Positions 32,859 to 62,244 of a stretch of DNA of 64,000 bases are shown here, piece after piece. This DNA is from a virus (lineage: Duplodnaviria > Caudoviricetes): IMG/VR virus record IMGVR_UViG_2936514734_000001, positions 32,001-96,000 of that record; one strand, 5' to 3'. The notes under the pieces are model-generated. The model was not told the DNA's origin and ran no database searches. It saw only the letters and a program-made list of their open reading frames with translations. Within the stretch, counting starts at the first letter, position 1. Every line of letters begins with the position of its first letter. A program made the translations under genes and the position numbers.

Positions 32859-34106
32859 ATGCGCCCAATTACTTTAAAGAATCCAAGTCTGCAAAAGGGG
32901 CCAAGCTCTTCTGAGGATTTTAATAAGTTACGTAATGACATTCAAACAGATATTACTACCTTATTTAATGTGGTGAATGATCATGAAGATGCAATTGCAA
33001 CTAACATGGACCATGTGATTCGTGAAAATTACTTTTTACAAAACCGCTTGTTAAAACTTCAGGAAAGAGTGAAGGAATTAGAAAACGATTATCAAGCTAA
33101 CAGCATAACAGGAGAAAGTATTCTTAATCGCTCTTTTTACCACGCAAGTAGTATTGCCTCTATTAATGCAAATAACCCCGTAAACGTAGATACTCTTCAC
33201 GGAATTGTTACACCGGTTGTCGTAAATTCTCATGATAAAATTGCATACAAAAATGATCTTGGTCAATATATTTTACCAAGTACATTAGAAGTATCTGTTT
33301 ATGAATCAACTGACGTAGAGCCTGTAGACGAAACAACAAAACAGCTTCAGTATTATGCAATTGATTCAACAGGTATCAATAAAGCTTTTGATGGTGATAA
33401 GAATTCATTTTGGGTTCGTCAATCTGAAACAAATGAGAATAAGTGTGTAACAGAGGTGTATGGCTTAATCCACGTAAAAATACCACAAGAAATTTCTAAT
33501 AACGTGTATACGAACACTCTCTTGCTTCATCCATCTCCCGAGTACTCTATGAGTATCATGGATATTCAATACAAAAACCAGAACGGGGAATGGCGTAGAC
33601 TAGAAACGTACCCTACAAAAATCGTAAGTAATGTTGAGACACCTGTAGAGATTGAAGAAACAGGTAAACTTGTATTCTCATTTCCCAAAAGACAGGTAAC
33701 TGAATTACAAATTTTTATTAAGCAGCCATACTGGTTTAAGCATGACAACAAACGCATTTTTATGTATGGATTTCAAGACATTGTAGTGGAGTACCGTGAG
33801 TATTCGCAAGACACTGCGGAATTTGTAACGAAGTTTTCATTAGAGGGTACGGATCGTCGCTTTGCTAATGTGGAAGCACCGCTGATTACAACACCTATAG
33901 GCTGTCCACCTTTTAATGACTACACAGTTAAACATGAGTTGTATTTCGATGAAGGATTAACTGAGCAGTTTGATTTCTCAACAGATATCTTTCAAACAGT
34001 ACAAGCTGTATATGTAAAGACTATTTTAAAAGTAGCAGGGGATCAGGTACCAATCCTAAGAGAAATTGAGTTACCTTATCGCTATGAAGAAATAGAACCC
34101 ATATAA
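32859..34106 (+). CDS. structural protein, coiled-coil plus discoidin-like family
   Basis: AFDGDKNSFW, FPKRQVTELQI and MYGFQDI motifs. Confidence 0.65.
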   Translation: MRPITLKNPSLQKGPSSSEDFNKLRNDIQTDITTLFNVVNDHEDAIATNMDHVIRENYFLQNRLLKLQERVKELENDYQANSITGESILNRSFYHASSIASINANNPVNVDTLHGIVTPVVVNSHDKIAYKNDLGQYILPSTLEVSVYESTDVEPVDETTKQLQYYAIDSTGINKAFDGDKNSFWVRQSETNENKCVTEVYGLIHVKIPQEISNNVYTNTLLLHPSPEYSMSIMDIQYKNQNGEWRRLETYPTKIVSNVETPVEIEETGKLVFSFPKRQVTELQIFIKQPYWFKHDNKRIFMYGFQDIVVEYREYSQDTAEFVTKFSLEGTDRRFANVEAPLITTPIGCPPFNDYTVKHELYFDEGLTEQFDFSTDIFQTVQAVYVKTILKVAGDQVPILREIELPYRYEEIEPI

Positions 34107-34146
34107 AAAAGGGGAGCATACCATAACGGCTATGCTCCTTTTTTAT
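34105..34146. terminator. bidirectional terminator ending the structural block
   Basis: A-tract GGGGAGCATA...TATGCTCCTT T-tract. Confidence 0.8.
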
Positions 34147-34346
34147 TATGAAATCAGAACAATCATACCAATTAATACTGCTGCAAATAACAAACCTAGA
34201 AAAGCACCTATTATCATTTTACCAAGAGTACCTGTTACAATTTCATGTTGCATTTCCTTGGCTTTTTGTTGGGAGTTTCCCGTTAAAATAAATGCCAAAA
34301 TAGAAACAATGATTAATAATAGTATAGCAATAATTACATAACTCAT
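34146..34346 (-). CDS. small protein with two transmembrane helices
   Basis: Two hydrophobic segments; AAGGAG SD. Confidence 0.65.
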   Translation of the reverse strand: MSYVIIAILLLIIVSILAFILTGNSQQKAKEMQHEIVTGTLGKMIIGAFLGLLFAAVLIGMIVLIS

Positions 34347-34651
34347 AGTACATTTATCTCCTTATACACTGTTATTTCATGAATATTATACCAATTAAAG
34401 TTCTTTTTGGGTGGCTATTTTTATGTTATAATATTATTGTTTCGCGTTATTAGCTCTATGCTAGTAATAAAAAAGAGTAGCTTTCCGAGGGCTACTCTTT
34501 TTGTATATATTCTTCTATAAATTCATTATTAAGTCTCCATAAAAAAAACAAATTCCTACATAAATATGGTATAATTGTTATATAACTATGTTTTCGGGTG
34601 GGCGGTTGCTCTTTTCCTTGCTCTATTTTATAGAGGAAGGAGGTGACCGCT

Positions 34652-34816
34652 ATGGATGTTTTAAAAACTATTTTAGTAGAAATAGCAAAAGTAGTAACTC
34701 ATACTCTAATTAACTACCTAATAAGTCTCATTCCTACTAAAAAACACAAAAAGAAAACCTCCCGCAAAAAGTCATGGGCGACTAAAGGGAGGTCTTCTAA
34801 AAGATATAGAGCTTAA
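34652..34816 (+). CDS. type I toxin-like peptide (54 aa, not in ORF track)
   Basis: MDVLKTILVEIAKVVTHTLINYLISLIPTKKHKKKTSRKKSWATKGRSSKRYRA; amphipathic N-terminus and basic tail; AAGGAGGTGA SD sequestered in a 5' hairpin; own extended -10 and terminator. Confidence 0.8.
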   Translation: MDVLKTILVEIAKVVTHTLINYLISLIPTKKHKKKTSRKKSWATKGRSSKRYRA

Positions 34817-34890
34817 ATTGCAATCTTCCACCTGAATGTAGTAGTTGCTAAAGGCGAGATGTTACCAGCATCTCGTCTTTTTTATGTATA
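34740..34890 (-). ncRNA. antisense antitoxin RNA of the type I TA locus (approximate ends)
   Basis: Minus-strand TGGTATAAT at ~34895-34903; terminator ACCTCCC...GGGAGGT plus T-tract inside the toxin ORF. Confidence 0.65.
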
Positions 34891-35084
34891 AACAATTATA
34901 CCAAATTTCCAAAAAAAAATATATAGGTAAAAACATAAAGGAGGAATTTAAACCCTTGATACTAAAGGGTTTATTTGCTTTTGAAATTCTTAAATTTAAA
35001 GATAAATACCCATAAATGAACAATATTATACATAAATATGGTACATTTGTTTAGTAGTTACATTTGAAAATAGGAGAGATGGGA

Positions 35085-35573
35085 ATGAGTTTTCAGTACA
35101 AAATAACAGATCAGAGTTATGATAAGGAATACAAAGTTTGGGAATATGATAAGATGAGAAAGGAATGTGCTCAACCGGGCGTATATATAATTACTGATAT
35201 TGCTCAAGAAATTCTTTATGTCGGTGAAAGTGAAAATGTTGGACAACGTGTTCGTGATCATATAACTGGAACTGAACAATCAAAACGTGGATTTATAAAA
35301 AGAATTTGCAATATAAGGATTTACCTTTTCGGTACATTAAATCGTGATATAACTGACATGAAAATGTGCGAACATTGGGCTAAAAGAGAATATCCACCAC
35401 TCTTTTCAAAAGATAGCATTGAGTACGATGGAGGAGATACTATTGAGTATTTATCTGACAGCTATACAGTCTGGGAGAATTGGCACAAATATTATGCTAC
35501 AGTAGATGACGAAGTAGTAGATGGAAAAGAATATCAAGAAAAACTTAAAGCAGCTAATTTGAAGCTAAAATAA
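35085..35573 (+). CDS. GIY-YIG nuclease family protein
   Basis: PGVYII...LYVGES.NV..R..DH motif. Confidence 0.8.
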   Translation: MSFQYKITDQSYDKEYKVWEYDKMRKECAQPGVYIITDIAQEILYVGESENVGQRVRDHITGTEQSKRGFIKRICNIRIYLFGTLNRDITDMKMCEHWAKREYPPLFSKDSIEYDGGDTIEYLSDSYTVWENWHKYYATVDDEVVDGKEYQEKLKAANLKLK

Positions 35574-35687
35574 AGGATTTTGTTTGACATCTTCTTTTAT
35601 AAGTGCAAAACTGTAGTATATATTGGCTACTACTCATAGATTTTTTCTAGAGTAGGAAAAAGAGCAGACCTTTTGGCTTGCTCTTTT

Positions 35688-35867
35688 TTATATATTCTTC
35701 TTCATACCACAATTGATACATTCACGCAGGAATTTACCGTTACCTACGCTACTTTTAAACTTTACTCCGTTACAATTATCGCAACGGCCGCTGACTTTAT
35801 CAGGCATCTCACTGTATTCATAAATCTTTGTTAGATCAATATTTGCGTATTTATCTTCTTGTTCCAT
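35688..35867 (-). CDS. small zinc-ribbon protein (59 aa, not in ORF track)
   Basis: MEQEDKYANIDLTKIYEYSEMPDKVSGRCDNC...LRECINCGMKKNI; GAGGGA SD; bidirectional terminator at stop. Confidence 0.75.
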   Translation of the reverse strand: MEQEDKYANIDLTKIYEYSEMPDKVSGRCDNCNGVKFKSSVGNGKFLRECINCGMKKNI

Positions 35868-36095
35868 CTTAATCCCTCACATTCTTTGCTTATCATAGCA
35901 ATATACATAATAAAAAGAAAGGTACTCGAATATATATGACGTAAAACTTTTTAATACAAGAAAAACCCCCGACAATACTTTCATTGCCGAGGGCTTTTCG
36001 CTGTTGAGTAATTTGAATTTAATAAAGTAGTGGTAACGAGTTAGTGAGGCTCGTTAAAATTATTATAGACATTTTTCTACATTATATTCTAACAG

Positions 36096-36410
36096 TTACC
36101 ATTTAGGTCCTTTAGGTAAATCCTCAAGCATCATCATGTGTTTTACTTTAGTCTTAGCATGTTTAACTTCTTTTTCAGCCTTTTCCAGATTGTCAATCTT
36201 TTTAGTAAATGTATCAAAATAGGACCCCATCTCCTGTTGGAAAGCATCCTTCGCGTTACCTGATTTCCACGTAGTTAATTCTTCAACTTTGTTTTTAACA
36301 AGTAACTGTTCGGCTCGCAAATCGGAAATGAGGGAGTCTAACTTGCTACTCAAACGGTCAAGATCATCTAATTCTCTTTTATATTTCTCTAAGTTTTTTT
36401 CATCCATCAT
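36096..36410 (-). CDS. WXG100-like helical partner protein
   Basis: ~100-aa helical hairpin with central WKSG; overlaps lipase gene by 4 nt. Confidence 0.65.
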   Translation of the reverse strand: MMDEKNLEKYKRELDDLDRLSSKLDSLISDLRAEQLLVKNKVEELTTWKSGNAKDAFQQEMGSYFDTFTKKIDNLEKAEKEVKHAKTKVKHMMMLEDLPKGPKW

Positions 36411-37546
36411 TTTAAAACATCAGCCTCCACAAACGATGCCGCTGCAGCATTCAAGTTATTTGCCATTCGAGAGGTATCCTCGGCAAACCAACTACTAAGA
36501 TTATGCGCTTGTCCAATTACATCGTTTACGACACCTTCAGATATTTGAATACCATCCAACATTGTTGCATCTCGTTTAAAGGAAGAACAAAGCTCTTCCA
36601 CCCGTGACACATAGCCTTCCAGTTCACTCGCTAAATTAATTAGATGTTCTGGCATAACATTGATTGTTGCCATTTCTCCAGAAGCATATCTAGGGGACTG
36701 TGCTAAAGACTGACCAGTTAGAATGTTTGTTAGAATAGGGTTGTTTAAATTACCTACACCATCAAATTTGAAGTGTTTCATATTATGATAACTTTCTCCA
36801 GCTAGTGAACCCCAAGCTCTTGAAACAGGGTTGTATCTATTCTTTGAGTTCTCAAGATCAAAGGAAGAACCGATGTAGTATGCGGAACCAATATATCTTT
36901 TATAAGGATTAACAGCTCCAGAACTTATAGAATCTTTAGGGTGAATGTAATTTACGATTTGTTTATCAAACTCACCCTTAACTGCTTTCTCTTTTAGATC
37001 TTTAGGAAGCAAGTTGATAACACTTGGTCCGTTAAACGTAACAGCTTCTACATTATTTTTAGCAGCTGCATAAGATGCAATGGACCCAGCCAAAGAGTGT
37101 CCTGTTAATTTAATATTGTAATCAGGATATTCTTTCTTTACATCTTGAACAAGTTTATCTCCCTGACGAAATTGATTCTTCTGATGGAAATCAACGGACA
37201 ACTTCCCGCTATCATATTCAATGTTTAAACCAAGACGATCAACCTTCTTGCCGCGTACAATATAAGTAGCATCGGTTTTTACGTCCGGCCATGCGCGTCC
37301 TTGTGTAACATTCTCTACTGAGTTGGCTTCAGTACCACGATAAGCAATAACTATATTCTTTTTGTTCTTTAAAACCAAGGCATCAAAACCAGTCTCTGCA
37401 TCATGAACTTTAAACTTTTTACTTTTTATAGTTGTCCATTTTTCATTACCATCTTCATAATGGATAGTATAAGATTTTCTAGGTTTGATATCGTAGGCAA
37501 AGCCACTTAGCTCACGAAACGTTCTATCCCTTACATCTGTAATCAT
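36407..37546 (-). CDS. lipase-family putative T7SS effector with C-terminal WXG-like domain
   Basis: IAYRGT, GHSLAG nucleophile elbow, TFNGP; helical C-terminus ending in FVEAD (FxxxD). Confidence 0.8.
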   Translation of the reverse strand: MITDVRDRTFRELSGFAYDIKPRKSYTIHYEDGNEKWTTIKSKKFKVHDAETGFDALVLKNKKNIVIAYRGTEANSVENVTQGRAWPDVKTDATYIVRGKKVDRLGLNIEYDSGKLSVDFHQKNQFRQGDKLVQDVKKEYPDYNIKLTGHSLAGSIASYAAAKNNVEAVTFNGPSVINLLPKDLKEKAVKGEFDKQIVNYIHPKDSISSGAVNPYKRYIGSAYYIGSSFDLENSKNRYNPVSRAWGSLAGESYHNMKHFKFDGVGNLNNPILTNILTGQSLAQSPRYASGEMATINVMPEHLINLASELEGYVSRVEELCSSFKRDATMLDGIQISEGVVNDVIGQAHNLSSWFAEDTSRMANNLNAAAASFVEADVLK

Positions 37547-37618
37547 AATTGAAGCCTCTCTCCTTATTAGTGTATAATTCTATTATATAAGAATTTCCAA
37601 GAATTTGGAGAGATATGG

Positions 37619-37918
37619 ATGATTAATAAGAAATTGTTTGGCTTTATTTTTATTATTGGAATACTACTTTTAACAGGGTGCGGCAAGGAGGACGACATGG
37701 ATAAGAAAGAGATAGAGAAAACCGCTTCACATGTAGCATCGGAATATATGAAAGTGGAAGAGGATATGGATTTTGTTGTTACTGGTGTAGACTTTTTCGA
37801 TGGTCAAGGAGTAACAACTGTAGCTGTTAATGGACATGAAAAAGGAAAGAAAAAAGAACTAGCAGTTATCATCGATTATGGTGATGATTATAGAGTGCAA
37901 GGGACAGCGGAAAATTAA
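37619..37918 (+). CDS. lipoprotein, probable immunity protein
   Basis: Lipobox LTGC after hydrophobic signal; divergent from lipase. Confidence 0.7.
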   Translation: MINKKLFGFIFIIGILLLTGCGKEDDMDKKEIEKTASHVASEYMKVEEDMDFVVTGVDFFDGQGVTTVAVNGHEKGKKKELAVIIDYGDDYRVQGTAEN

Positions 37919-38092
37919 TAAGAATAAACGAAAAAAGAACCTTTAGATATTGTATCTTTAGGTTCTTTTTTACTAATAAGAGAGCTGAGTTTATACGAGT
38001 TGGATATTGGAGTTTGCCATGTGTTGTAGTACCTTATCAAATATCCATCCATAATTGTATCCAGTTTTTTAAATAATATACATGGTTATGAA

Positions 38093-38254
38093 TCATTGTT
38101 TTTTACAATTATCGCAAGTTACAGGTATGATCTTTCCCGTACTTGTCATCATCGTACCGCTATTATTGTCTAATATAGATAAAGAGGTAATCACTCCGCT
38201 GATATTATTATATCTAACTGAGTCTCCAATATTTAAACCATACCAATCATTCAT
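38093..38254 (-). CDS. small hypothetical protein (53 aa)
   Basis: MNDWYGLNIGDSVRY...VTCDNCKKQ; GAGGTG SD; TGATG coupling to upstream ORF. Confidence 0.6.
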   Translation of the reverse strand: MNDWYGLNIGDSVRYNNISGVITSLSILDNNSGTMMTSTGKIIPVTCDNCKKQ

Positions 38255-38400
38255 CAATACAGTTCACCTCTTTTAAATTTTTTACGACTATAGGAGCCTT
38301 TTCCTTTTTTATTCTTTACTACACGAGTTGAAGCATTAAAAGCCCATGTACCTCGAGTATTAGTCATCTCACCAATTGTTTTTAATTCTCTTTTACTCAT
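38254..38400 (-). CDS. ArfA-like putative ribosome rescue factor (48 aa, not in ORF track)
   Basis: MSKRELKTIGEMTNTRGTWAFNASTRVVKNKKGKGSYSRKKFKRGELY; matches ArfA core RVEKNKKGKGSY.RK. Confidence 0.65.
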   Translation of the reverse strand: MSKRELKTIGEMTNTRGTWAFNASTRVVKNKKGKGSYSRKKFKRGELY

Positions 38401-38751
38401 ACCCAAACCTTCTTTCTTTACTATTAGTTAAATATCTTATATATAATTTCTGCATATCTATTAATAGAGAGTTTAATTACCTTACTTAATTGCTCACAAA
38501 TAAACCATAATAAGAATAAAGGTAACATTGGTATAATTACTAATATTGTTAGTAAAAGAGTTAACCAAGAAATGCTTGGTACACCCATCAAACTTATCAC
38601 CACCAGTTAAGTAAATAGTAAATTACTTTAGTAAATATGTTTTATCATTTACCTAGTTTGTAGAAAAAGTGCGTATTTGTCGTCACCTAGAGTAATACCT
38701 GTAACTTTAAAATTCGAACAGACTTATAATATTTACTTCATTAAGTTGATA

Positions 38752-38897
38752 CAAAGAAAAAGACAGTCGGGGGATGACTGCCTTCTTCAAGTGAGGGAGG
38801 AATGATAATAATGAAGTAAGTAATATTAAGAAAGGTTAAAACAAGTTCGTATTCACGGGGAGTGTGAAGAGATAAAACTTGTGAGGTAACTTACATT
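38752..38897 (-). ncRNA. candidate sRNA with C-rich anti-SD loops
   Basis: Hairpin UUCAC-ACUCCCC-GUGAA, linker UUCCUCCCUC, terminator GGCAGUC-AUCCCCC-GACUGUC plus U-tract. Confidence 0.55.
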
Positions 38898-38998
38898 CTT
38901 AATAAAACCTTTTCATTTATAAAATGCAAACATTAATTTATACAAAATAAAAACGACTACCAAAGAGGGAGCCGCTTGTATTTATTCCTAATATTAAA

Positions 38999-39301
38999 TT
39001 ATAGCTTCATAAAGAAATCATTAACTGTATAATTAGTTTCGTATTTCTTATTAACCATTTCAATTGCCGCTTTAAACCTAAACATCGCATGCCTATCTTC
39101 ATAGTTATCGCCATATAGAAGGTAATTACAGAATGATATCTTGGTTAAGCTTATAACCATCAAATCTTTAAGATCTGGTTCATCAAAGTTTTCATATATT
39201 AACTTATAAAAGTTATCTAGTCGATTAAGCAGAGATTTTTCTGTAACCAAAATTGAATTCTCAACTTTCGTCCTTCCCATATGTACATCACTCGCTTTCA
39301 T
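38999..39301 (-). CDS. hypothetical protein
   Basis: ORF track; terminator at ~38945-38976. Confidence 0.55.
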   Translation of the reverse strand: MKASDVHMGRTKVENSILVTEKSLLNRLDNFYKLIYENFDEPDLKDLMVISLTKISFCNYLLYGDNYEDRHAMFRFKAAIEMVNKKYETNYTVNDFFMKL

Positions 39302-39833
39302 CTTTGTATATACAATAGAAAATAGAAAAAAGTTAGTTTTACTATCATCCGGTTGCTAACGTTAAGGATTCATCACTACACTAGAAGAAGAATGGTATCG
39401 ATATCCGGATAATAATTTAACTAACTTTTTTCTATCAATCAATAGTCGGCTTTTGCAAAATACAGGTGTGTTGCTTTTTTCACATTTTCATTTTTACCAA
39501 ATAAATGACTTATATACATTTTATAGAATTTTATTTTGAAATATATGAGTATTATGGGGCAAGGGATAGTACCACTATCATTTAGTTGCGTAACAGAAGA
39601 ACAAGCTTACAGCTACAGGGTTAATTGTGCCACTAAATTTAAGATCGACTATCCGTTGCCTTGGACCTTACATAATACCAGAAGTACGGTGAAACACCGT
39701 TGAATTCCACCGCATTTTTATTATTACTAATTAACTGGATATATATTCATCTTTTTCTTACAGAATAGTCCAATACATGGTAAAATCAGGTTAGATACAA
39801 ACAGAAAAATTGAATATAGGAGAGTGGCCGGGG

Positions 39834-40586
39834 ATGAGCTTAAGCATTAATGAGATAATAAAAAACAAAAGAATTTTTGAAATAGACGACGATTGCAATT
39901 ACTTCATCTTAGACGAGGACAAGATCAAAAAATGCATGTATTTTGACTACGTTATTGCTATAAAACATGGCGATTTACCTTACCCTAAAAAGTGGTTAAG
40001 GTTCTTTGATGTCGAACATCCCATAAAGGGACAGGTAATACCTATTGAAGAATACAATAGCGATGACTATGAATATGTTTTTATGCCGTACTTTAAATTT
40101 CCTGATGAACTCAAAAAGCCGCTTGAAGAATTAGGATATACTATAGATAAGGATTATAAAGCTGAAAATTTTTTAATTGAACTAGATAAAATTCCAGAAC
40201 AACTTCTACCTGTTGTTAAGAATATGATCATTGAGAATCAAGAACATAGTAGTGGACCAGAACAAAACGACTTTTATGTTTATGAGAAAGACGGTGAATT
40301 AGTTTATTTTTTAGTGGGCAAAGAGGAGGGTTTTGTTAATACTATTACCGATGAAGTAACAACTAAATTCCAAGATATAAAAACTTTAGAGGCATATGAA
40401 ACTCCATCTAAAGATACTTATTTATTTAAAACTAAAGACCCGCTTAGCAGCTATAGTTCTGAACGTTGGTTCGTATATCTAACTGCAGATCCAAATTTTC
40501 CGCGCCTTAAAGAAGTGGATGAAGTAGCAGACATGTTACCATATACATCTTTTAAAGCAACTGAACCAAAAGTTGAAGTTAAATAA
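39834..40586 (+). CDS. hypothetical acidic protein
   Basis: AGGAG SD; followed by GCAGACAG...CTGTCTGT terminator. Confidence 0.65.
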   Translation: MSLSINEIIKNKRIFEIDDDCNYFILDEDKIKKCMYFDYVIAIKHGDLPYPKKWLRFFDVEHPIKGQVIPIEEYNSDDYEYVFMPYFKFPDELKKPLEELGYTIDKDYKAENFLIELDKIPEQLLPVVKNMIIENQEHSSGPEQNDFYVYEKDGELVYFLVGKEEGFVNTITDEVTTKFQDIKTLEAYETPSKDTYLFKTKDPLSSYSSERWFVYLTADPNFPRLKEVDEVADMLPYTSFKATEPKVEVK

Positions 40587-40980
40587 AATAGGTGAGAATT
40601 ATTTAGCAGACAGGTTAAACTGTCTGTTTTATTTTTCTTTTACATCTCGATATAATAAGTTGTTTTTTAGATATGAAGACATAGCAAAAGACGGCCGAAG
40701 CCGCCTTATACCATAAGTTTTATCTTATCTAAAACAAAACTAATAATGTAGAACCTATTAACAAGAGAAAATCTTTTTTCTATATATATATGGTGTTAAT
40801 TTACCATGAAAGTTCTATTTTGTCAATTTTTTTATTCTGTCTCAATAGGATAAGTATTCTTAAATAAATGAGATATAAAAAAGAGCGACCGAAGTCGCCC
40901 AAACGATTTTATTCTACCTATAAACTTAATGCACTCCTATTTTATTGTAGCATAAGCACCCCTCTTTCTTAAAATAAATT

Positions 40981-41008
40981 GGTTCCTATAATATATCTTA
41001 TGTAAACT
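40981..41008 (+). other. dif site (XerC/XerD = CodV/RipX target)
   Basis: GGTTCCTATAA-TATATC-TTATGTAAACT versus B. subtilis dif ACTTCCTAGAA-TATATA-TTATGTAAACT (24/28, XerD arm identical). Confidence 0.85.
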
Positions 41009-41076: not shown

Positions 41077-42240
41077 TTAATGTTTTACAACAGTTACATA
41101 AGTAAGTTTGCTGACATTATTTGAAGCATCCTTAGCAGTTACATTAATGGTAGTCCCTTTTTTTTGCACAGGGATGTTAACAGAAAATGATCCTTTTGAA
41201 TTTGCTTTTGCGTATCCAATTCTGTTTTTACCTACATTAACAGTTACAGTAGAATTAGCCTCAGCTTTACCAGTTACAACCTTATCATTATCATCTACTT
41301 TATTAACTGTTGGTTTATTAGGTGGAGTAACATCTGACTTTACAACAGTTACATACGTAAGTTTACTCACATTACCCGAACTGTCTTTAGCGGTTACATT
41401 TAGTGTAGTTCCTGCTTTTTGAACAGGAATACTAACCGAGAATGAACCATTTGAATTTGCTTTCGCATATCCAATTCGATTCTTCCCTACATTAACAGTG
41501 ACAGTTGAACCTGCTTCTGCTTTACCAGTTACAACTTTATCGTTATTGTCTACTTTGTTAACAGTAGGTTTATTTGGTGCCACTGTGTCTTTAGCAGCAG
41601 CTTCAAATAAAGTCGAGATTCCATATGCCTCACCAGTTTCACTACTATTTAAATCCATAACAGGTATGTAATATGTACCCGCTTTATTAACTTTATACTC
41701 TTGGACTTCTACTCCATCATCATATTCAGAACCTAAGTACTCTATATATCCATGATCTGAGTAATCATATTCAGTTGCCATAAATAATAAATCCATATCG
41801 GTAGGAGTATCTGTTACTCCACCTACTAATAGAGTACCTTTTCCAGATACGTATACCTTATAAAAATCTATATCGAAAGTATCATTAAATTGTCCAAATG
41901 TCATTCTATCATTTAGGAGTGTATCTGCTATTTTGAAATCATCATTAGGCTCACTCTCGTACATTGGCGACCCGCTACTACCACTAATACTAGCTGCATT
42001 AGATTTATTCGCTGAAAACGACTTTGGAGTTTTTAATGAGTTCAAAGTTTTCTCTTTAAAGTCATTCAGTACACTAGGGCTAATAACGTTATGATTGAGC
42101 GGTTTATCATTTTTCAATTGGCTTTCAATTGCTTTCTTTGAAGCCTCGTAATTGTTGCCTTCTGCTTGAGCTGTACCTACTGATAATGAGGAAGCTAGTA
42201 AACCTACGGACAATAATGAGATAATACCCTTTTTCTTCAT
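41077..42240 (-). CDS. secreted protein with PPC-like domain and two Ig-like repeats
   Basis: Signal peptide ending AQA; ESEPND and DIDFYKV motifs; two near-identical D(T/V)..PNKPTVNKVD...TAKD..NVS repeats. Confidence 0.8.
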   Translation of the reverse strand: MKKKGIISLLSVGLLASSLSVGTAQAEGNNYEASKKAIESQLKNDKPLNHNVISPSVLNDFKEKTLNSLKTPKSFSANKSNAASISGSSGSPMYESEPNDDFKIADTLLNDRMTFGQFNDTFDIDFYKVYVSGKGTLLVGGVTDTPTDMDLLFMATEYDYSDHGYIEYLGSEYDDGVEVQEYKVNKAGTYYIPVMDLNSSETGEAYGISTLFEAAAKDTVAPNKPTVNKVDNNDKVVTGKAEAGSTVTVNVGKNRIGYAKANSNGSFSVSIPVQKAGTTLNVTAKDSSGNVSKLTYVTVVKSDVTPPNKPTVNKVDDNDKVVTGKAEANSTVTVNVGKNRIGYAKANSKGSFSVNIPVQKKGTTINVTAKDASNNVSKLTYVTVVKH

Positions 42241-54038: not shown

Positions 54039-54425
54039 TTATCTAACAGGGCCGTAATGATCCTCTAAAGCTTTATCCAATAACCCCCTACACCGTTCAA
54101 GCTCAACTTTCATTTGCTTCTTATAAAGGTCATATTCTTTCTTTCCTTCATCCGTAAGTGAGTATAGGATAATCTCTTGAAAATCAACGCCCTTCTCCCC
54201 TTTGATTTGGCGTTCCCTTTTGACTAACCCATCCCTAGTCAATTCGTGTAATACTTTATATGTTTCTGTATGAGTAGGTTCATACCCATACTGTTTAAAT
54301 TCTTTACGTAAATCCCCTAAATATTGAGACGCATACCCTTTATGCTTATCAATTGTCTTGTATATGTATAGCTTCAAAAATGCACGTTGCTTTAATAAGA
54401 AACCTCTATTTTTAAACTCACTCAT
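54039..54425 (-). CDS. rtp: replication terminator protein
   Basis: GFLLKQRAFLKLY...EF...G..P.HTE.Y..LHEL..DG...QE..LY...YKKQ.KVEL.RC..L..KAL.D closely follows B. subtilis RTP. Confidence 0.9.
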   Translation of the reverse strand: MSEFKNRGFLLKQRAFLKLYIYKTIDKHKGYASQYLGDLRKEFKQYGYEPTHTETYKVLHELTRDGLVKRERQIKGEKGVDFQEIILYSLTDEGKKEYDLYKKQMKVELERCRGLLDKALEDHYGPVR

Positions 54426-54449
54426 TATATACACACCTTTCGAAAGTGT

Positions 54450-55710: not shown

Positions 55711-56607
55711 TTATTGTTTCTGGATAAGTTTATAAATATTTATAAGACCATTTCCAAAGTTGTCATCGTCGCCTGCTTCTCCGAGATCAACAGAGCGGTC
55801 ATGAATTAATTGCATAATTTGGTCAGGTGATAGTTTTTGTCCTGATTTACGAGCAAGTGATTCAATAAGAGCAATAACTCCTGCAACCATAGGTGTTGCC
55901 ATTGAAGTACCGGATAGTTTTGCATAACTACCATTTTTATACGTACTATAAATGTCTACACCAGGAGCCGCTACATCTAATTCATTACCGAAGTTAGAGA
56001 AGTTTGCTTTTCCAAATGCTTGGTCAATTGCACCAACAGCAATTGTTTCTTCATACACTGCAGGCCAACCTACATGAGTATTTTCATTACCTGAAGCAGC
56101 TACAATAATAATACCTGCATCATGTGCACGTTTGAAAGCTTGATGGAATGCAGGGCCCGGATCAACAGGACAACCTAGACTCATAGAGATGATGTCCACT
56201 TGTTCTTCTATTGCCCAATCAATTCCTTTGATAATAGCATCAATAGAACCTGAACCATCATCACCTAGAACCTTAGCAATATATAATTGTGCTCGTGGTG
56301 CTACACCAACAACTCCTACCATATTGTCACAAGCAGCAATAATACCTGCACAGTGACTGCCATGACCTTGACGATCTACAAAGTCGGTAGGGTTTGAAGT
56401 AGTAAAGTTGATACCTTTTACAATGTTAGGTGCTAAATCTGGATGTTTAGGATCAATGCCTGTATCTAATACCGCTACTTTGATTCCTTCTCCTTTTGTA
56501 AGAGACCAGATTTGAGGAGCTTGAACTAGGCTTACACCCCAGTCAATAACTTGTTTTGGTGAAGTAGATTGAACCTCAAGTACTTCAGATTGGATTTTAA
56601 ATTCCAT
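55711..56607 (-). CDS. subtilisin-family (S8) serine protease without signal peptide
   Basis: VAVLDTG, HGSH, GTSMATP catalytic triad motifs. Confidence 0.92.
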   Translation of the reverse strand: MEFKIQSEVLEVQSTSPKQVIDWGVSLVQAPQIWSLTKGEGIKVAVLDTGIDPKHPDLAPNIVKGINFTTSNPTDFVDRQGHGSHCAGIIAACDNMVGVVGVAPRAQLYIAKVLGDDGSGSIDAIIKGIDWAIEEQVDIISMSLGCPVDPGPAFHQAFKRAHDAGIIIVAASGNENTHVGWPAVYEETIAVGAIDQAFGKANFSNFGNELDVAAPGVDIYSTYKNGSYAKLSGTSMATPMVAGVIALIESLARKSGQKLSPDQIMQLIHDRSVDLGEAGDDDNFGNGLINIYKLIQKQ

Positions 56608-56733
56608 AGGAACTCCTCCTTTAATCGATTACCAAAGAAAAATAACCATTTGATTAAAGGGGCTCAATCTTAAACTCTGTTGTCTCCCAACTTCATAACA
56701 ATAAAAAAAGGTGAGAACAATGTCCCACCCGTT

Positions 56734-56826
56734 TTACTTAGGACTAAATATGATTTCTAAGATTGCGGCTGTTAAATCCGCTAGTGCTTCAAAGAGACCA
56801 TGATGCCTCCTTTTTCTTCTTGCCAT
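56734..56826 (-). CDS. small peptide (30 aa) coupled to the nucleoside transporter gene
   Basis: TAATG overlap; MARRKRRHHGLFEALADLTAAILEIIFSPK; ends at terminator. Confidence 0.4.
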   Translation of the reverse strand: MARRKRRHHGLFEALADLTAAILEIIFSPK

Positions 56827-58007
56827 TATAGGAACAGACCTACAATCGTCGCTGATAATACAGACGCCATTGTTGCTACTAATAGCATTTTCATACCAAA
56901 CTTAGCAACGCCCGCACCTTGTTCTTGAGAAAAACTTTGTACTGTTCCTTGAATGATTCCAATAGAAGAGAAGTTAGCAAAACTAATTAAGAATGTTGAA
57001 ACGATACCCACAGTTTTAGCAGATAATGCTCCCATAATTGGTCCAAAACCAAGCATAGCTACAAACTCATTCGCTACAATCTTTGTAGACATAACACTTC
57101 CTGCTTTAACCGCTTCATCCCAAGGCACACCCATGATCCATGCAACTGGAGATAAGATATAACCTAGGATAGTTTCAATCTTCATACCTACTAAACCTGT
57201 AACTGCCCAGTTAACCATTGCTAGTAATCCAACATAAGCGATAAGCATAGCAGCTACAATAGCGGCTACTTTTAATCCGTCAATTGCACCATTACCAACC
57301 GCTTCAAAGAATGTCTTTTCTTTCACCATATCTTTGATGTTAATATCAGCGTTGTCTTCTTTAACTGGTGCTACGATAGTAGAAAGGATTAATCCACTTA
57401 GAACATTCAATGGTAATGCAATTAAAACATATTCAGGCGGTACCATTTGCATGTAAGAGGCTACAATAGAAGCGCTTACACTAGTCATTGAAGCTGTAGT
57501 TGCTACGAATAGCTGATTACGGTTAAACGAAGGAATGTGGTTTTTAATCGCTAATAAAGCACCTGTATCTCCAAATACAGAAGATGCAATTGTACTAAAT
57601 GAAAGAACTCGTGGTAGTCCTGTAATCTTTGCAATTAATCCACCAAGATATTTAATAAGTAGCGGTAAAATTCTGATATAGTTTAAGATACTTAGAATAG
57701 TTGAAGTAAACACAATCAGTAATAATACGCTAATAACGAAAACAGATTTACCTTCAGGAACTAATCCACCAACTACAAAGTTGATACCTTCTGTCCCGAA
57801 AGTCATTAGCTTAGAGAACCCGTTTGCAATCGCCGTTAGGATTTTACCTCCAATGCTTGTGTGTAGCATAAATGCTGTAATAACCAACTGAAGTACGAAT
57901 AAAATACCTACCGCTCGATAATTGATATTCTTCTTATCATTTGATAGTAAGAACGCAACTCCAAACGTAATAACGATCCCTAAAATGCCTACTAAAATAC
58001 CTGTCAT
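56826..58007 (-). CDS. nupC: CNT-family nucleoside transporter
   Basis: GI.FV.G, K.VANEFVA and FANFSSIGI motifs; polytopic membrane protein. Confidence 0.9.
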   Translation of the reverse strand: MTGILVGILGIVITFGVAFLLSNDKKNINYRAVGILFVLQLVITAFMLHTSIGGKILTAIANGFSKLMTFGTEGINFVVGGLVPEGKSVFVISVLLLIVFTSTILSILNYIRILPLLIKYLGGLIAKITGLPRVLSFSTIASSVFGDTGALLAIKNHIPSFNRNQLFVATTASMTSVSASIVASYMQMVPPEYVLIALPLNVLSGLILSTIVAPVKEDNADINIKDMVKEKTFFEAVGNGAIDGLKVAAIVAAMLIAYVGLLAMVNWAVTGLVGMKIETILGYILSPVAWIMGVPWDEAVKAGSVMSTKIVANEFVAMLGFGPIMGALSAKTVGIVSTFLISFANFSSIGIIQGTVQSFSQEQGAGVAKFGMKMLLVATMASVLSATIVGLFL

Positions 58008-58090
58008 TTTGAATCTCCTTCTTCTTATTTATTTGTCGGAAATTAAAATAAGCAGTTAACTTATCAAAGTCAACTGCCATTCTCAAATAT

Positions 58091-58603
58091 TTAACTGCAG
58101 ATTCTACTAAACTCTGAATCAACAATTTGTAGCTTGTCACATGCAATAAAGTCATGTGGATATATAACTCCATCTTTGTCAGGGAATAGTTCGATACCTA
58201 CTCGTCTGAATACTTCATCCACCAATTCGGTACAAATATAACTGTTCTTCCCATTTAGGTGTTTTAATAATTTTGTGTTTGGAAATTTTGTTTTCAGAAA
58301 CAGATTAATCAGCATAAGCCAATCATATCTATTTCCGGTCTTGTTAAACGCACAAGCATTAGAAGTAATGTTTACTTGTTGATTTGCTGTTAAAGGTTTT
58401 TTACTTCTTAACACAACATGCTCAAACTCACCAAACGTATAAGGATCTTTAACAAGTGTTGCTTTCGTGTTCCAATCAATTTCTAAAACATATCCACCGC
58501 CAACATAAAGGGCGACATGCGTCCATTTAGAGCCGACTGTCTTTTGAATTGCTTTAGAAATGATACTGTTACCACTAACAACAAAGATATCTCCAATTTT
58601 CAT
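58091..58603 (-). CDS. permuted papain-like NlpC/P60 (YiiX/YebB-like) enzyme
   Basis: GDI, WTHVALY, YD and YICTELV motifs. Confidence 0.8.
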   Translation of the reverse strand: MKIGDIFVVSGNSIISKAIQKTVGSKWTHVALYVGGGYVLEIDWNTKATLVKDPYTFGEFEHVVLRSKKPLTANQQVNITSNACAFNKTGNRYDWLMLINLFLKTKFPNTKLLKHLNGKNSYICTELVDEVFRRVGIELFPDKDGVIYPHDFIACDKLQIVDSEFSRICS

Positions 58604-58818
58604 AGAGGCATTACCACCTTTCCAAGTCGAAAAAAAGGGAGGCCTCTAATTAGAGACCCCCAAGAAGAGAGAGAAAGAAGTAAGAAGGAGAAATAACATA
58701 ACAAACACATAGGAGGATACATATCGTATGATGAACGCTACATTATATATATAATCTATTGATGTCGTATTAACAATCTTCTCGTCTACTATCTCTCGAC
58801 TGGATAACCAACCAATAC

Positions 58819-59118
58819 TTAAAGTGGAATGTCTTCGTATCCGGAAACATTTAACCAATCAGGTATTTCAGGTTCTTGCACAAATAATGGCTGTACAGGA
58901 GCTACATTAACCGGCATATGATCTATATCACCATAATCAACTCTGCAATAAAAATGACCATCATCACACGGCTTGTCTAACTTTAGATGAACAGGATAGA
59001 AATACTCACCATTAGCAATAAGATGTATTGTAGCGGTATCCCCTACATTAATTCCTGCTATTCCTATATCCCTAACAATATAAACTCTGTCTCCCTGCTT
59101 AAACTCTTTTTTAAGCAT
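58819..59118 (-). CDS. hypothetical protein (SH3-like)
   Basis: FKQGDRV motif; overlaps upstream gene. Confidence 0.55.
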   Translation of the reverse strand: MLKKEFKQGDRVYIVRDIGIAGINVGDTATIHLIANGEYFYPVHLKLDKPCDDGHFYCRVDYGDIDHMPVNVAPVQPLFVQEPEIPDWLNVSGYEDIPL

Positions 59119-60154
59119 GAGATGATTGAGGCAACAAACCTAATGCATTCTCTGTTAGGAATGTCATTTTTTCAGAGTCAAATTCGAAACCGGCAGCCTT
59201 GGGATGTCCTCCACCGCCTGCAATTGATTTAGCAATATTACCTACATGTACGTCTTCATGAATAGTTCGAAGACTTGCTTTACCAGAGTTCATATCAAGA
59301 ATAGCAACAAAATTCAGGTCAGGATTCAGAGTATTTAATGTATTACCTAATGTTGAATGATATTGATCAGCGAACACTACACCTACGTCATAACGCTTAC
59401 CATCGACATACCATTCATGTTTAGCCATTTTCTTAGAGCGGCCTTCAATGTATTTTTCTTCTCGTTTGTTTTCAATGTTGACCAATAATCGTTCTGTTTC
59501 ATTTAAAGAGAATAGATCAGGCAGTCTAACATTAGTGAAGATTTTAACGAATTTCGCTAACTGCATCTCAATAAACTGAGACGGTGTAAGAATATAAAGA
59601 ACAGAATTTAATTCTTTAGCAAGGTCATTACCTGTACGGTACCAGTCCCATGTGTCATAAGAACGAACCTGCTCTACAAAAGTGTTTACAGCGTATGATT
59701 CATACACATGAGTTAGGAAACAGTCTTTCTCTTTTAGGTATAGATAATATAATTCTGTAGCAGAAGTTAAGCGGTCATTAATTTTACTTGTAATAAAAGC
59801 CCACTCAGGATACTTTTCACTAATCCATTTAGCTGTGTCGTGATGATCTAGTAACACAATAGTAAGACCTGCAGTAAATAAATTGTTCAAGCGCTCTACA
59901 ATTTCTTCAGATGTAGGAGCAATATCTGTAATTAAAATAGCGGAAGTTACATATTTAGGTACGTTTTTGTCTTCTTCAAATGATGACATAACTTCATCAA
60001 GTTCTTCCTCAAACCGATCATAGCCGCAATGAATATGCTTAGCTATTTTTAATGTCGATAATTTAGAAATGACTTGGGGAGAATATCCGTCCAAGTCATT
60101 GTGTGAAAGATGATATACTGTTTTACCTTTTAATGATTGTAAGTTACCAAACAT
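59111..60154 (-). CDS. DHH/DHHA1 phosphoesterase (nanoRNase-like)
   Basis: HNDLDG, TD, DHH, SLR and GGGHPKAAG motifs. Confidence 0.9.
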   Translation of the reverse strand: MFGNLQSLKGKTVYHLSHNDLDGYSPQVISKLSTLKIAKHIHCGYDRFEEELDEVMSSFEEDKNVPKYVTSAILITDIAPTSEEIVERLNNLFTAGLTIVLLDHHDTAKWISEKYPEWAFITSKINDRLTSATELYYLYLKEKDCFLTHVYESYAVNTFVEQVRSYDTWDWYRTGNDLAKELNSVLYILTPSQFIEMQLAKFVKIFTNVRLPDLFSLNETERLLVNIENKREEKYIEGRSKKMAKHEWYVDGKRYDVGVVFADQYHSTLGNTLNTLNPDLNFVAILDMNSGKASLRTIHEDVHVGNIAKSIAGGGGHPKAAGFEFDSEKMTFLTENALGLLPQSSHA

Positions 60155-60175
60155 CTTATTTCCCCCTTGTAGCGA

Positions 60176-60937
60176 TTATGCCGCTACTGTTTTATTTTTA
60201 CGTAATGCATGTACAACAAATGTTGCAGCAAACGTTAAGATTAAGATTCCAAAGAATAACCAGTGAGGAACATGAATTTCATGCATGTGGTATGAACCAT
60301 GAAATAATTTAGAAGCAAGGTTTACCATGCTATGAACAGTTCCTAGTAACATTTTTAAACCAATGATTACGATTAAAACGAAAGCTGTATGCTCCATTTC
60401 TGGTACTCTTTCAATAAGTCTAGTAAATAATTTTGCAACAAAACGCATCATGACAATACCAAGAATACCGCCAAGTGCTAATACCCAAAACTTATCACTA
60501 AGAGCCAATGCAGCAGTAATACTATCTACTGAGAAAGCTAAATCCATTAATTCAATTGAAATAACAACAGACCAGAAATGACTTACTCGAATGTTCATTT
60601 TACCTAGTAATTTATGAAGCCATGTTTTCGTATACTTATCTACTACTCCGCTTTCATCTGAATCTTCTTCTTTCTTAACAAAGTGCTCAATACCCATCTT
60701 TAATAAGTAAACCGCACCAATAACTTTAATAATCCAGAACTTAACGATAACTGTTCCAATCAAGATAAAGAATGCACGAAACGCAATTGCTCCTACCATA
60801 CCGTAATAAAGAACCTTGTCACGCTTAGCAGGATCTTTTACTTTGCTTGCCATCATTGATAGTACAAGGGCGTTATCTGCACTTAGTAAGCCCTCCATTA
60901 CAATCAATACAAAAACGATATATAAATTTTCTAACAC
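60176..60937 (-). CDS. TerC family membrane protein
   Basis: EGLLSADNA and DLAFSVDSI motifs; GTG start. Confidence 0.9.
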   Translation of the reverse strand: MLENLYIVFVLIVMEGLLSADNALVLSMMASKVKDPAKRDKVLYYGMVGAIAFRAFFILIGTVIVKFWIIKVIGAVYLLKMGIEHFVKKEEDSDESGVVDKYTKTWLHKLLGKMNIRVSHFWSVVISIELMDLAFSVDSITAALALSDKFWVLALGGILGIVMMRFVAKLFTRLIERVPEMEHTAFVLIVIIGLKMLLGTVHSMVNLASKLFHGSYHMHEIHVPHWLFFGILILTFAATFVVHALRKNKTVAA

Positions 60938-60971
60938 GTAGTTTCCTCTTCCCTATAGATATTTTATTCTC

Positions 60972-61232
60972 TTAGCGGGGATCATCTGTATGTGCTAAGC
61001 ATCTTTTACATTCGAAAGACTTAGACGGGGTAATGAACGGAATAGAAATCCATCCCCCGCCAATAAACTTCCAATCATGACCTTGCACTGAACAAATTAG
61101 TAACCGCCTCCAAAGACCAATAAACAAAAAGTGACCAAAGATAATTATGCGGATTGCTATTCCAACTAAGTACGTCAGAATGATTATGCCTACCCCTTCC
61201 AGCATATCTATCAAGTAGGTTTTTCTAGACAC
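60972..61232 (-). CDS. membrane protein with C-terminal C...GHDW...C.RC motif
   Basis: ORF track. Confidence 0.55.
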   Translation of the reverse strand: MSRKTYLIDMLEGVGIIILTYLVGIAIRIIIFGHFLFIGLWRRLLICSVQGHDWKFIGGGWISIPFITPSKSFECKRCLAHTDDPR

Positions 61233-61247
61233 TCTTACACCCCATTA

Positions 61248-61349
61248 TTAGCGGTTTTTATTCATGATTGCTTTCTTTACGTCTTCACCAATATAATCCC
61301 AAACTATGCAACCTGCACAGAAACCAAAGATGAATAGAATTAAGCTCAT
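61248..61349 (-). CDS. small membrane peptide (33 aa, not in ORF track)
   Basis: ATGA overlap; GGAGGT SD; MSLILFIFGFCAGCIVWD... Confidence 0.55.
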   Translation of the reverse strand: MSLILFIFGFCAGCIVWDYIGEDVKKAIMNKNR

Positions 61350-61579
61350 TTACGTTTACCTCCATTAGGACAAATTGTTATTGCAATGAAAAATCCGACA
61401 ATAGCAAAAGCAATATGCTGACTAAAAGCCATAGCACCCGCTCCGAATTTTGTATATGGACGAACAACAAGTTCTATCCAAATCACACCTTTACATATAA
61501 AGAACATGATGACCTCTACTACTAGCAGGGTCATCATCAGTTTTACGTTATACCAAAAGTTCTTGATTTTTTGCTTCAT
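61346..61579 (-). CDS. small membrane protein
   Basis: Two hydrophobic segments. Confidence 0.6.
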   Translation of the reverse strand: MKQKIKNFWYNVKLMMTLLVVEVIMFFICKGVIWIELVVRPYTKFGAGAMAFSQHIAFAIVGFFIAITICPNGGKRK

Positions 61580-61583
61580 AGGA

Positions 61584-62186: not shown

Positions 62187-62244
62187 AATTAATTCCTCCG
62201 ATTGTTTATAAGTTTTGTATTTTAATAAATGATTAAATAATTAA

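Follow-up and report, generated by a model that had tools for sequence, protein, structure and literature searches.

Introduction

Two families of reverse-orientation substrates of the T7SS (type VII secretion system) have been described, the first in 2023 and the second in 2026, both in staphylococci (PMC10730906, PMC13560087). Here we analyze a comparable three-gene cassette, encoding a lipase, a WXG100-like partner and a divergent lipoprotein, that lies in viral DNA. It was found in a stretch of 64,000 nucleotides (hereafter the window), which corresponds to bases 32001-96000 of the 239,374-bp linear virus record IMGVR_UViG_2936514734_000001 (Duplodnaviria; Caudoviricetes), rated complete by CheckV. 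An initial annotation had read the locus as a T7SS-type toxin cassette; every element it named is present, and the architecture is conserved as a unit in Bacillales. We consider it likely that the cassette is a functional module of the Tsl2 type, derived from the host and dependent on the host's T7SSb, with which carriers of a probable phage-plasmid would poison non-carriers under the protection of the lipoprotein.

In the first family (Tsl1), the lipase TslA of Staphylococcus aureus needs two partners, TlaA1 and TlaA2, in which the authors found no F/YxxxD/E motif, and it is neutralised by TilA, a DUF576-type lipoprotein encoded upstream in the toxin's operon (Garrett et al., 2023; PMC10730906). 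In the second (Tsl2), TslM of S. aureus has one WXG100 partner and an LFG motif at the helical turn, and the immunity proteins, Til2, are divergently encoded, membrane-anchored DUF1433 proteins that are described as transmembrane (Higginson et al., 2026; PMC13560087). The same paper lists the lipoprotein versus transmembrane anchor as a trait separating Til1 from Til2, and reports linker-less homologues of ~400 aa in Bacillus and Listeria, orphan til2 genes, and a paralogue, TslP, carried on SaPIs; in its available text the mobile carriers are SaPIs and SePIs only (PMC13560087).

Results

A predicted reverse-domain lipase and its helical partner

The list of open reading frames (ORFs) gives three intact ORFs within window positions 36096-37918, one for each protein of the cassette (Table 1). 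As the initial annotation had stated, the lipase contains a GHSLAG motif (G149-H-S-L-A-G154), and its match to Lipase_3 of Pfam, 31.7 bits, lies above the cut-off of 22. An AlphaFold2 model built on a 28-sequence alignment (pLDDT 85.3, pTM 0.73) predicts an alpha/beta-hydrolase of the class-3 lipase type from residue 1 to ~290, followed by two helices, 299-328 and 334-377, that form a hairpin with L330-D-G332 at its turn. S151, D205 and H254 are invariant across the 28 sequences and D376 is nearly so. Foldseek matched the model in the PDB to feruloyl esterase A (1uza, E 3.8e-7), Yarrowia Lip2 (3o0d, E 1.8e-6), the T6SS lipase effector 9cys (E 5.9e-5) and also Thermomyces lipase; Lip2 3o0d is the template cited for both TslA and TslM (PMC10730906, PMC13560087). 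By sequence, the PDB yielded matches to the lipase core only, and homologues of the lipase carry a precomputed PF26363 annotation.

The helical domain at the C terminus of the lipase ends as had been claimed, with FVEAD at residues 372-376, three residues before the end (...SFVEADVLK), which places an F372xxxD376 motif close to the C terminus. No N-terminal signal peptide was seen on the lipase. When the C-terminal domains of nine homologous lipases were compared with Pfam, sub-threshold matches recurred to EspC (5/9, best E 0.0049), WXG100 (5/9, best E 0.0085), EspB_PE (3/9) and LXG (1/9), all of which point to T7SS substrate families. An hhalign comparison of the domain with the partner family returned a probability of 4.3%, that is, no detectable paralogy.

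The partner gene is the single small ORF between the lipase gene and a terminator-like hairpin. Its start and the lipase stop share the sequence ATGA, so the overlap that had been noted is real and measures 4 bp; the WXG-like motif reads W48-K-S-G51 (WxxG). In an alignment of 15 partner sequences WxxG is the form of the clade to which the window partner belongs, and WxG or FxG occurs in the other clades. Four of 15 partner homologues match WXG100 at E<=0.01. Eleven of 15 end in G-P-K-[W/F/Y], as does the window partner with GPKW; this conserved tail could be part of the export signal, and such a C-terminal tag is not described for either Tsl family in the available text (PMC10730906, PMC13560087). 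A search of the PDB with the partner sequence gave nothing useful (one match, at E 0.96).

Within the intergenic region, which at 72 bp has the length first reported, a sigma-A-like promoter match (TTGAAG-18-TATAAT, 37549-37578, + strand) is directed at the lipoprotein gene. Shine-Dalgarno sequences were found ahead of both the lipase and the lipoprotein genes. An Rfam search over 34000-41000 returned one far sub-threshold SurA match only.

Table 1. Window coordinates of the cassette, its predicted parts and the surrounding segments
Feature	Coordinates	Strand	Description and basis
Predicted reverse-domain lipase toxin gene (Tsl2-like)	36407..37546	-	379 aa; Lipase_3 match, AlphaFold2 model, Foldseek
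Part of the lipase gene coding for the putative C-terminal helical targeting domain	36407..36661	-	aa 296-379; AlphaFold2 model; sub-threshold T7SS-substrate matches
WXG100-like helical partner gene (Tla-like)	36096..36410	-	104 aa; PF06013 match, homologous neighbours
Divergent immunity-type lipoprotein gene (remote DUF1433/Til2 relative)	37619..37918	+	99 aa; lipobox, hhalign
Divergent intergenic region	37547..37618	.	72 bp; between lipase start and lipoprotein start
Terminator-like hairpin	35960..35999	-	18-bp stem then T-run; ~100 nt downstream of partner gene
Hairpin	37931..37971	+	19-nt arms, 3-nt loop, then T-run; just past lipoprotein stop; inverted repeat
Host-derived segment	36093..37935	.	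1843 bp that align with the P. megaterium BHS1 chromosome at 87.9% nt identity
Variable cargo segment	34423..38270	.	blastn/tblastx against NZ_CP013278.1

The divergent lipoprotein as a remote relative of Til2

The divergent gene does encode a lipoprotein, as judged from its sequence: the N terminus, MINKK, supplies KK as the n-region; next come a hydrophobic core and then L-T-G-C21 as the lipobox, whose G20 and C21 do not vary among the ten members of the protein's group. We compared this group of 10 sequences with a DUF1433-positive group of 8 by hhalign and obtained a probability of 99.5% (E 1.3e-22, 98 columns), and the joint alignment of both groups is convincing through the mature domain. 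Among 16 proteins in the immunity position, nine match DUF1433 at E<=0.06, and two of the 16 exceed its cut-off of 30.8, with 38.5 and 34.1 bits. By these alignments we regard the lipoprotein as a remote Til2 relative in which the uncleaved transmembrane anchor has been exchanged for a lipobox. Its identity is 88% to the copy on the chromosome of Priestia megaterium BHS1 and about 49-52% to that of the BHS1 paralogue.

AlphaFold2 predicts for the mature domain one helix packed on a four-stranded sheet (19-sequence alignment; pLDDT 80.8, above 90 in the mature domain). The VIA-wide matches of this model were a designed cystatin fold (Z 9.4), a C. difficile lipoprotein (8.4) and YpmB (7.8), followed by common cystatin/PepSY/NTF2-like arrangements with Z down to about 6. 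The cystatin/PepSY-type fold is common and is often used by enzyme inhibitors. We take the matches as an indication of the predicted fold and not as evidence of function. Foldseek found nothing for the model in the PDB at E<=0.001, the sequence had no match in the PDB, a homologous-protein search with it returned one match only, and a six-frame search of the phage genome for DUF1433 gave no match at E<=1.

Tsl2 is the best-fitting family for the cassette

The initial annotation had cited the TslA/Tsl1 type of system, neutralised by a lipoprotein, as the known parallel. One part of this stands, in that the lipoprotein anchor is a Til1-like trait; on the whole Tsl2 fits better, with one partner and a divergent DUF1433-type gene. 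The locus shares with TslA the reverse domain order, a GxSxG-type lipase of Lip2 fold, lipoprotein immunity and a helical partner encoded downstream. Membership in Tsl1 nevertheless fails, because there is one partner and not two (TlaA1 and TlaA2) and because the immunity protein is not of the DUF576 type: TilA is a larger, unrelated protein of DUF576 tandem type, co-transcribed from an upstream gene, whereas the protein here has 99 aa, is related to DUF1433 and is divergently encoded. With the TslM/TlaM/TilM system the locus has in common the N-terminal lipase, the C-terminal helical targeting domain, one gene for a small helical, WXG100-like partner of ~100 aa directly downstream, and a divergent immunity gene in or near DUF1433. 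Carriage on a mobile element is a further likeness to Tsl2 (TslP on SaPIs there). Three things set it apart from the TslM system: the immunity protein is lipid-anchored (LTGC) and below the Pfam threshold for DUF1433, the targeting domain is a hairpin of ~80 aa with a clear C-terminal FxxxD motif, and the carrier is a probable phage-plasmid of 239 kb. The layout is that of Tsl2, and we treated the immunity gene as the decisive test, which assigns the cassette to Tsl2 rather than Tsl1; it therefore fits best in this "reverse" T7SSb lipase family and not with TslA/Tsl1.

A keyword search of titles and abstracts in the open-access literature found no description of a reverse lipase on a phage or phage-plasmid. 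LXG toxin genes of B. subtilis are reportedly located in prophage regions, and prophages of Mycobacterium abscessus are said to carry polymorphic-toxin cassettes. These resemble the present case as toxin-immunity pairs that sit on a temperate element and depend on the host's type VII machinery, but they have N-terminal targeting domains and involve neither a reverse lipase nor a jumbo phage-plasmid. Reverse lipases of this kind and the principle that prophages bear T7SS toxins are both already known, and the twists added here are modest: a lipid-anchored, Til2-like immunity protein, and a cargo site on a probable jumbo phage-plasmid that also holds a T7SS toxin in a relative.

The three-gene unit is conserved in Bacillales and associated with EssC

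Close homologues of the lipase are found in Priestia (92% and 65% identity) and Peribacillus (41-44%). An exhaustive search of representative proteins returned 411 at E<=1e-3 and 33 at E<=1e-30; the 20 clusters that were checked by name come from Bacillaceae, Paenibacillaceae, Sporolactobacillus and metagenomes, with one nematode lipase. All three genes occur together in the chromosome of P. megaterium BHS1, in two paralogous copies ~9.5 kb apart, and in Metabacillus idriensis, where the cassette lies in a flagellar region, a non-prophage context. The BHS1 cassettes (locus L003:9629-20952) show 68% nt identity to each other's counterpart in the phage comparison. P. megaterium CH447_14T has broken copies only, with stops inside the lipase gene.

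Across 401 sampled Bacillales genomes, 31 contain a lipase homologue at E<=1e-20, and the gene neighbourhood of 15 of these loci was analyzed by script. A helical ORF of 95-106 aa lies directly downstream of the lipase in 14 of the 15, and the fifteenth ends at a contig end. All 15 have one or two adjacent proteins of 95-125 aa with an N-terminal lipobox or transmembrane anchor, mostly divergent upstream but downstream in loci L020 and L021, and in tandem in L024, L028 and L030. Every intact lipase (14/14) has [FY]xxxD at 4-12 residues from its C terminus.

No EssC, YukC/EssB or LXG protein was detected in the window or in the whole 239,374-bp record, in agreement with the earlier remark that the secretion machinery is absent, and the window partner is the only WXG100-like match in the record. 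With neither EssC nor YukC on the phage, export would need the T7SS of the host. The three named bacterial genomes that bear the cassette all encode EssC above the NCBIfam cut-off. EssC is present in 139 of the 401 sampled genomes, with the limit that incomplete assemblies can hide it: it was found in 29 of the 31 lipase-positive genomes (absent in G205 and G357) versus 110 of the 370 lipase-negative ones, an association with an odds ratio of 34 (Fisher p 1.3e-12) in which shared ancestry is uncorrected.

Relatives occur in smaller viral contigs as well. Of 595 pattern matches in a profile-guided scan of IMG/VR, 90 were confirmed as relatives; 80 of these were kept, and most of them match in the lipase core only. 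We inspected the six loci with the longest coverage, on prophage-sized contigs of 30-72 kb. All six encode a lipase of 476-498 aa ending in ...[FM]xxKDxxLAxWL[RK]L and a divergent protein with a transmembrane (TM) anchor that resembles the DUF1433-scoring proteins of L030 and L031 (by resemblance, not by Pfam). Four have a helical ORF of ~101-110 aa downstream; of the remaining two loci, one stops where its contig does. The lipase relatives in these contigs adjoin phage ligase, lysin and repressor-like genes. A single-protein query with the lipase found no relative in the viral contigs, a tblastn search of phages gave three weak lipase-domain matches in phages of Listeria and Streptococcus (26-35% identity, covering 31-44% of the query), and no near-identical DNA was found in the phage collection.

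The cassette is host-derived and under purifying selection

Comparison of the flanks by blastn showed that homology to the BHS1 chromosome extends past the partner stop by 3 nt and past the lipoprotein stop by 17 nt before it ends. Past these edges phage and chromosome each bear their own hairpin terminators: the hairpin on the partner side lies beyond the edge of the host-derived segment, and the one on the lipoprotein side is unlike its counterpart at that position in the Priestia chromosome. The best explanation of this pattern would be that the cassette was captured as a discrete unit of 1.8 kb from a Priestia chromosome. We found no convincing direct or inverted repeats around the cassette that would mark transposition or integration.

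Relative to the chromosomal copy, the dN/dS values (Nei-Gojobori) are 0.105 for the lipase (dS 0.44), 0.058 for the partner (dS 1.10) and 0.141 for the lipoprotein (dS 0.45). The low ratios indicate that purifying selection has acted on all three genes ever since they diverged from the chromosomal copy, and together with the Lipase_3 score they mark the three ORFs as real genes and not chance ORFs.

The cassette is found at the same junctions in other assemblies. In an independent run labelled with one organism (6.3 Mb of contigs), a contig of 160,904 nt covers 33003-39438 at ~94% identity, except for two short diverged stretches within 35087-35545. A contig of 2,517 nt, present in two other runs that may be one data set because their figures are identical, spans 35814-38334 across both cassette junctions. 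A rhizosphere metagenome contains the phage form plus the chromosomal flank, the latter as a loose end at 37918. None of the sequencing runs listed as containing the sequence was an RNA run. The recurrence of the junctions in contigs of other runs indicates that the cassette is stable in the phage lineage. We had also considered an assembly chimera, which is ruled out by the contigs of other runs that bridge both junctions.

Further mobile or Priestia-like pieces lie close by. About 0.5 kb from the cassette is a gene resembling GIY-YIG homing endonucleases (35064-35573, + strand; Pfam 32.3 bits), which is missing from the related-phage contigs of two runs, where 34515 is joined to 35689, consistent with a mobile endonuclease gene. 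An element of ~90 nt around 38607-38739 has at least 8 copies of 75-85% identity scattered in the BHS1 chromosome. A non-coding stretch at 38755-38915 is common to the pBtic235-type plasmid discussed below and is partly present in the BHS1 island between the two cassettes; Rfam gave no family for this area. A Big_6 gene (41077-42240, - strand; 387 aa, two Ig domains) has 82% nt identity to a stretch of G264, another sampled genome, that lies ~10 kb from the cassette of that genome and on one contig with it. This last similarity suggests that the phage received several pieces of a single Priestia island, and the cassette, the ~90-nt element and the Big_6 gene together make Priestia probably the host.

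The carrier is related to the phage-plasmid pBtic235

Among jumbo Bacillus phages, KLEB27-3, WH1 and Edson have virion proteins similar to those of the carrier (~39% aa); the similarity to 0305phi8-36 is distant. At the DNA level the structural module is 75.7% identical to 235-kb plasmids of B. thuringiensis israelensis, and by whole-genome blastn 67.5% of the phage is collinear with NZ_CP013278.1 at 72.5% nt identity. Two plasmid proteins, RepA (48% aa) and Ant (77%), have homologues in the phage, as does the plasmid's RTP-type HTH protein (78%), but not its XerS. pBtic235, from B. thuringiensis israelensis, is described as a circular, extrachromosomal jumbo prophage that is mitomycin C-inducible and plaque-forming (PMC9700832). 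Collinearity with this inducible plasmid-prophage, together with the RepA homologue, makes lysogenic conversion by the phage plausible. A purely lytic life cycle was dropped as the leading view on the same grounds, namely the collinearity, the RepA homologue and the inducible plasmid-prophage state of pBtic235.

Collinearity with the pBtic235-type plasmid runs to 34422 and resumes at an arfA-like gene (~38272) and at 38755-38915. In the interval from the last virion gene module to the arfA-like gene, the phage has 3.85 kb in place of the plasmid's 1.16 kb; the wider non-collinear region comprises window positions 34422-55729. Within this wider region the plasmid has a toxin-immunity pair of its own (NZ_CP013278.1, 233417-235114; L050:11588-13285): a toxin of 410 aa that starts with a WXG100 domain (77.1 bits) and has a Colicin-DNase/WHH nuclease as its C-terminal part, after which comes a SUKH/SMI1-KNR4 immunity protein. 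By their domains, then, two related jumbo elements, pBtic235 and this probable phage-plasmid, carry different T7SS-type toxin-immunity pairs in one cargo region. The available text of the pBtic235 paper mentions neither WXG nor type VII (PMC9700832).

Both elements have the RepA homologue, Ant, RTP, TerD, a nucleoside transporter and an S8 peptidase, and both have their T7SS-type pair in the variable region after the virion module. They differ in that the pBtic235 toxin has the canonical orientation, with WXG100 at the N terminus and the nuclease at the C terminus, and SUKH immunity, in that pBtic235 has XerS, and in their hosts (B. cereus group versus Priestia).

Proposed mechanism, alternative explanations and implications

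In the mechanism that we favour, the lipase and its partner, translationally coupled through the ATGA overlap, would be made in the cytoplasm of a cell carrying the plasmid-prophage, presumably in the lysogenic state. By analogy with TslM-TlaM, the partner would pack on the C-terminal hairpin of the lipase to form a helical bundle, in which the LDG turn and F372xxxD376 may act as a composite signal for the EssC ATPase of the host. The host T7SSb would then export the complex, and the lipase, with Ser151-Asp205-His254 as its catalytic residues, would attack membrane phospholipids of neighbouring cells from outside. The lipoprotein, held by its lipid anchor on the outer face of the producer's membrane, would bind and block the lipase through its cystatin/PepSY-like domain. 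As a net result, lysogens would kill non-carriers while being immune to that toxin themselves.

Several observations weigh against this mechanism or against the Tsl2 assignment on which it builds. The assignment compares the locus with the published descriptions of TslM and TslA, and the 20 lipase clusters checked by name contain no Staphylococcus proteins. In the lipase, the nucleophile motif has Ala at the fifth position in place of the Gly of canonical GxSxG (more distant homologues have GHSLGG), the Gly of the LDG turn varies among homologues, and the C-terminal hairpin of ~80 aa is far below the ~150-aa LXG-like domain of TslM. The partner matches PF06013 (WXG100) with E 9.4e-5, yet its score of 23 bits falls short of the 27.3-bit cut-off, and it has WxxG and not WxG at the expected turn. 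The lipoprotein has no Pfam match, DUF1433 included, even at E<=10, and has a lipobox anchor where Til2 is described as transmembrane (PMC13560087). The 72-bp gap contains no sigma-A-like promoter on the lipase strand, and the association with EssC may partly reflect the shared ancestry mentioned above. As to the carrier, searches of the phage genome detected neither ParA nor ParB, nor any tyrosine or serine recombinase (integrase, resolvase), the literature describes a more distant relative, 0305phi8-36, as lytic (PMC3357382), and what suggests a plasmid state for this phage is solely the state of its relatives.

The alternatives concern what the cassette is kept for. It could be retained mainly for the lipoprotein, as a defence against Tsl2-type lipases of Priestia neighbours that protects the carrier, or an infected cell during the long cycle of a jumbo phage, with toxin and partner as baggage or secondary. 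Toxins of this type are encoded in Priestia chromosomes, with two paralogous cassettes in BHS1, so phage-infected cells would meet them; the immunity genes of the family are often multiplied, as in L024, L028 and L030, or orphaned, as described for til2 (PMC13560087); and the sole promoter-like match in the gap drives the lipoprotein gene. We nevertheless hold this explanation to be unlikely: the lipase and partner genes are intact, and the constraint on them at least equals that on the lipoprotein gene (0.105 and 0.058 versus 0.141), both are kept in relatives of ~94% identity, and the lipoprotein is close to that of one BHS1 copy (88%) and far from that of its paralogue (about 49-52%). Less probable again is that the cassette is a neutral passenger, recently and illegitimately captured in a cargo hot-spot, with no role for the phage and little or no expression. 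The segment differs between relatives, and the neighbouring GIY-YIG gene likewise occurs in some relatives and is missing from others; further pieces derived from Priestia are close by, and the lipase strand lacks a recognisable promoter, as a passenger would allow. At a dS of 0.44-1.1, however, a useless toxin gene should have decayed, yet all three ORFs are intact with low dN/dS; the phage's own terminators stand on both sides of the cassette, diverged relatives from other studies have it in the same position, and pBtic235 independently holds another T7SS toxin pair in this region.

Lipolytic enzymes aid lysis, entry or release in some phages. The lipase could, on this model, be a T7SS-independent phage enzyme for one of these steps, set free by lysis, with the small proteins as a chaperone and a self-protection factor. 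Its place just after the virion module, where the relative KLEB27-3 has lysis genes, would suit such a role, and release by phage lysis needs no secretion system. We find this very improbable, given that the cassette is a bacterial chromosomal unit that also occurs outside prophages (the flagellar region of Metabacillus) and is tightly associated with EssC, that the C-terminal hairpin, the [FY]xxxD motif and the WXG-like partner would be left without a role, and that neither a signal peptide nor similarity to virion proteins was seen.

The variable region of the pBtic235 lineage might be a site at which host-T7SS-dependent toxin-immunity modules are swapped and act as a population-level addiction system, an idea that we put forward as speculation and rather doubt. 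If it were true, cells that lose the plasmid prophage, which has no ParAB, would lose surface immunity with it and be killed through the T7SS by lysogenic siblings; the toxin would both stabilise the phage-plasmid and clear non-lysogens, which are potential hosts or competitors. The locus is a clean and compact example from Bacillaceae, with proteins of 379, 104 and 99 aa, an explicit C-terminal FxxxD and a background, Priestia, that is genetically tractable and not a pathogen. It suggests that the Til2/DUF1433 immunity fold can be lipid-anchored, which blurs one stated distinction between Tsl1 and Tsl2, and that such cassettes move on phages, here on a probable phage-plasmid of 239 kb. If the cassette is active, the phage would alter which cells win in rhizosphere Priestia populations, relying on the secretion machine of its host.

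Other genes of the carrier

The gene at which collinearity with the plasmid resumes is a 50-aa ArfA-like ORF (38254-38406, - strand), which scores 26.4 bits against a cut-off of 25.5 and is syntenic with the annotated arfA of the plasmid; ArfA is an alternative ribosome-rescue factor. Further along the window, a host-like cargo block (55711-62898, - strand) encodes an S8 subtilase, a concentrative nucleoside transporter, TerC and two TerD proteins, and its genes have annotated counterparts on the pBtic235-type plasmid, except TerC, which is not annotated there under that name. The RTP gene (54039-54434, - strand; Pfam 143.9 bits) is unusual for a phage and fits plasmid replication of the theta type.

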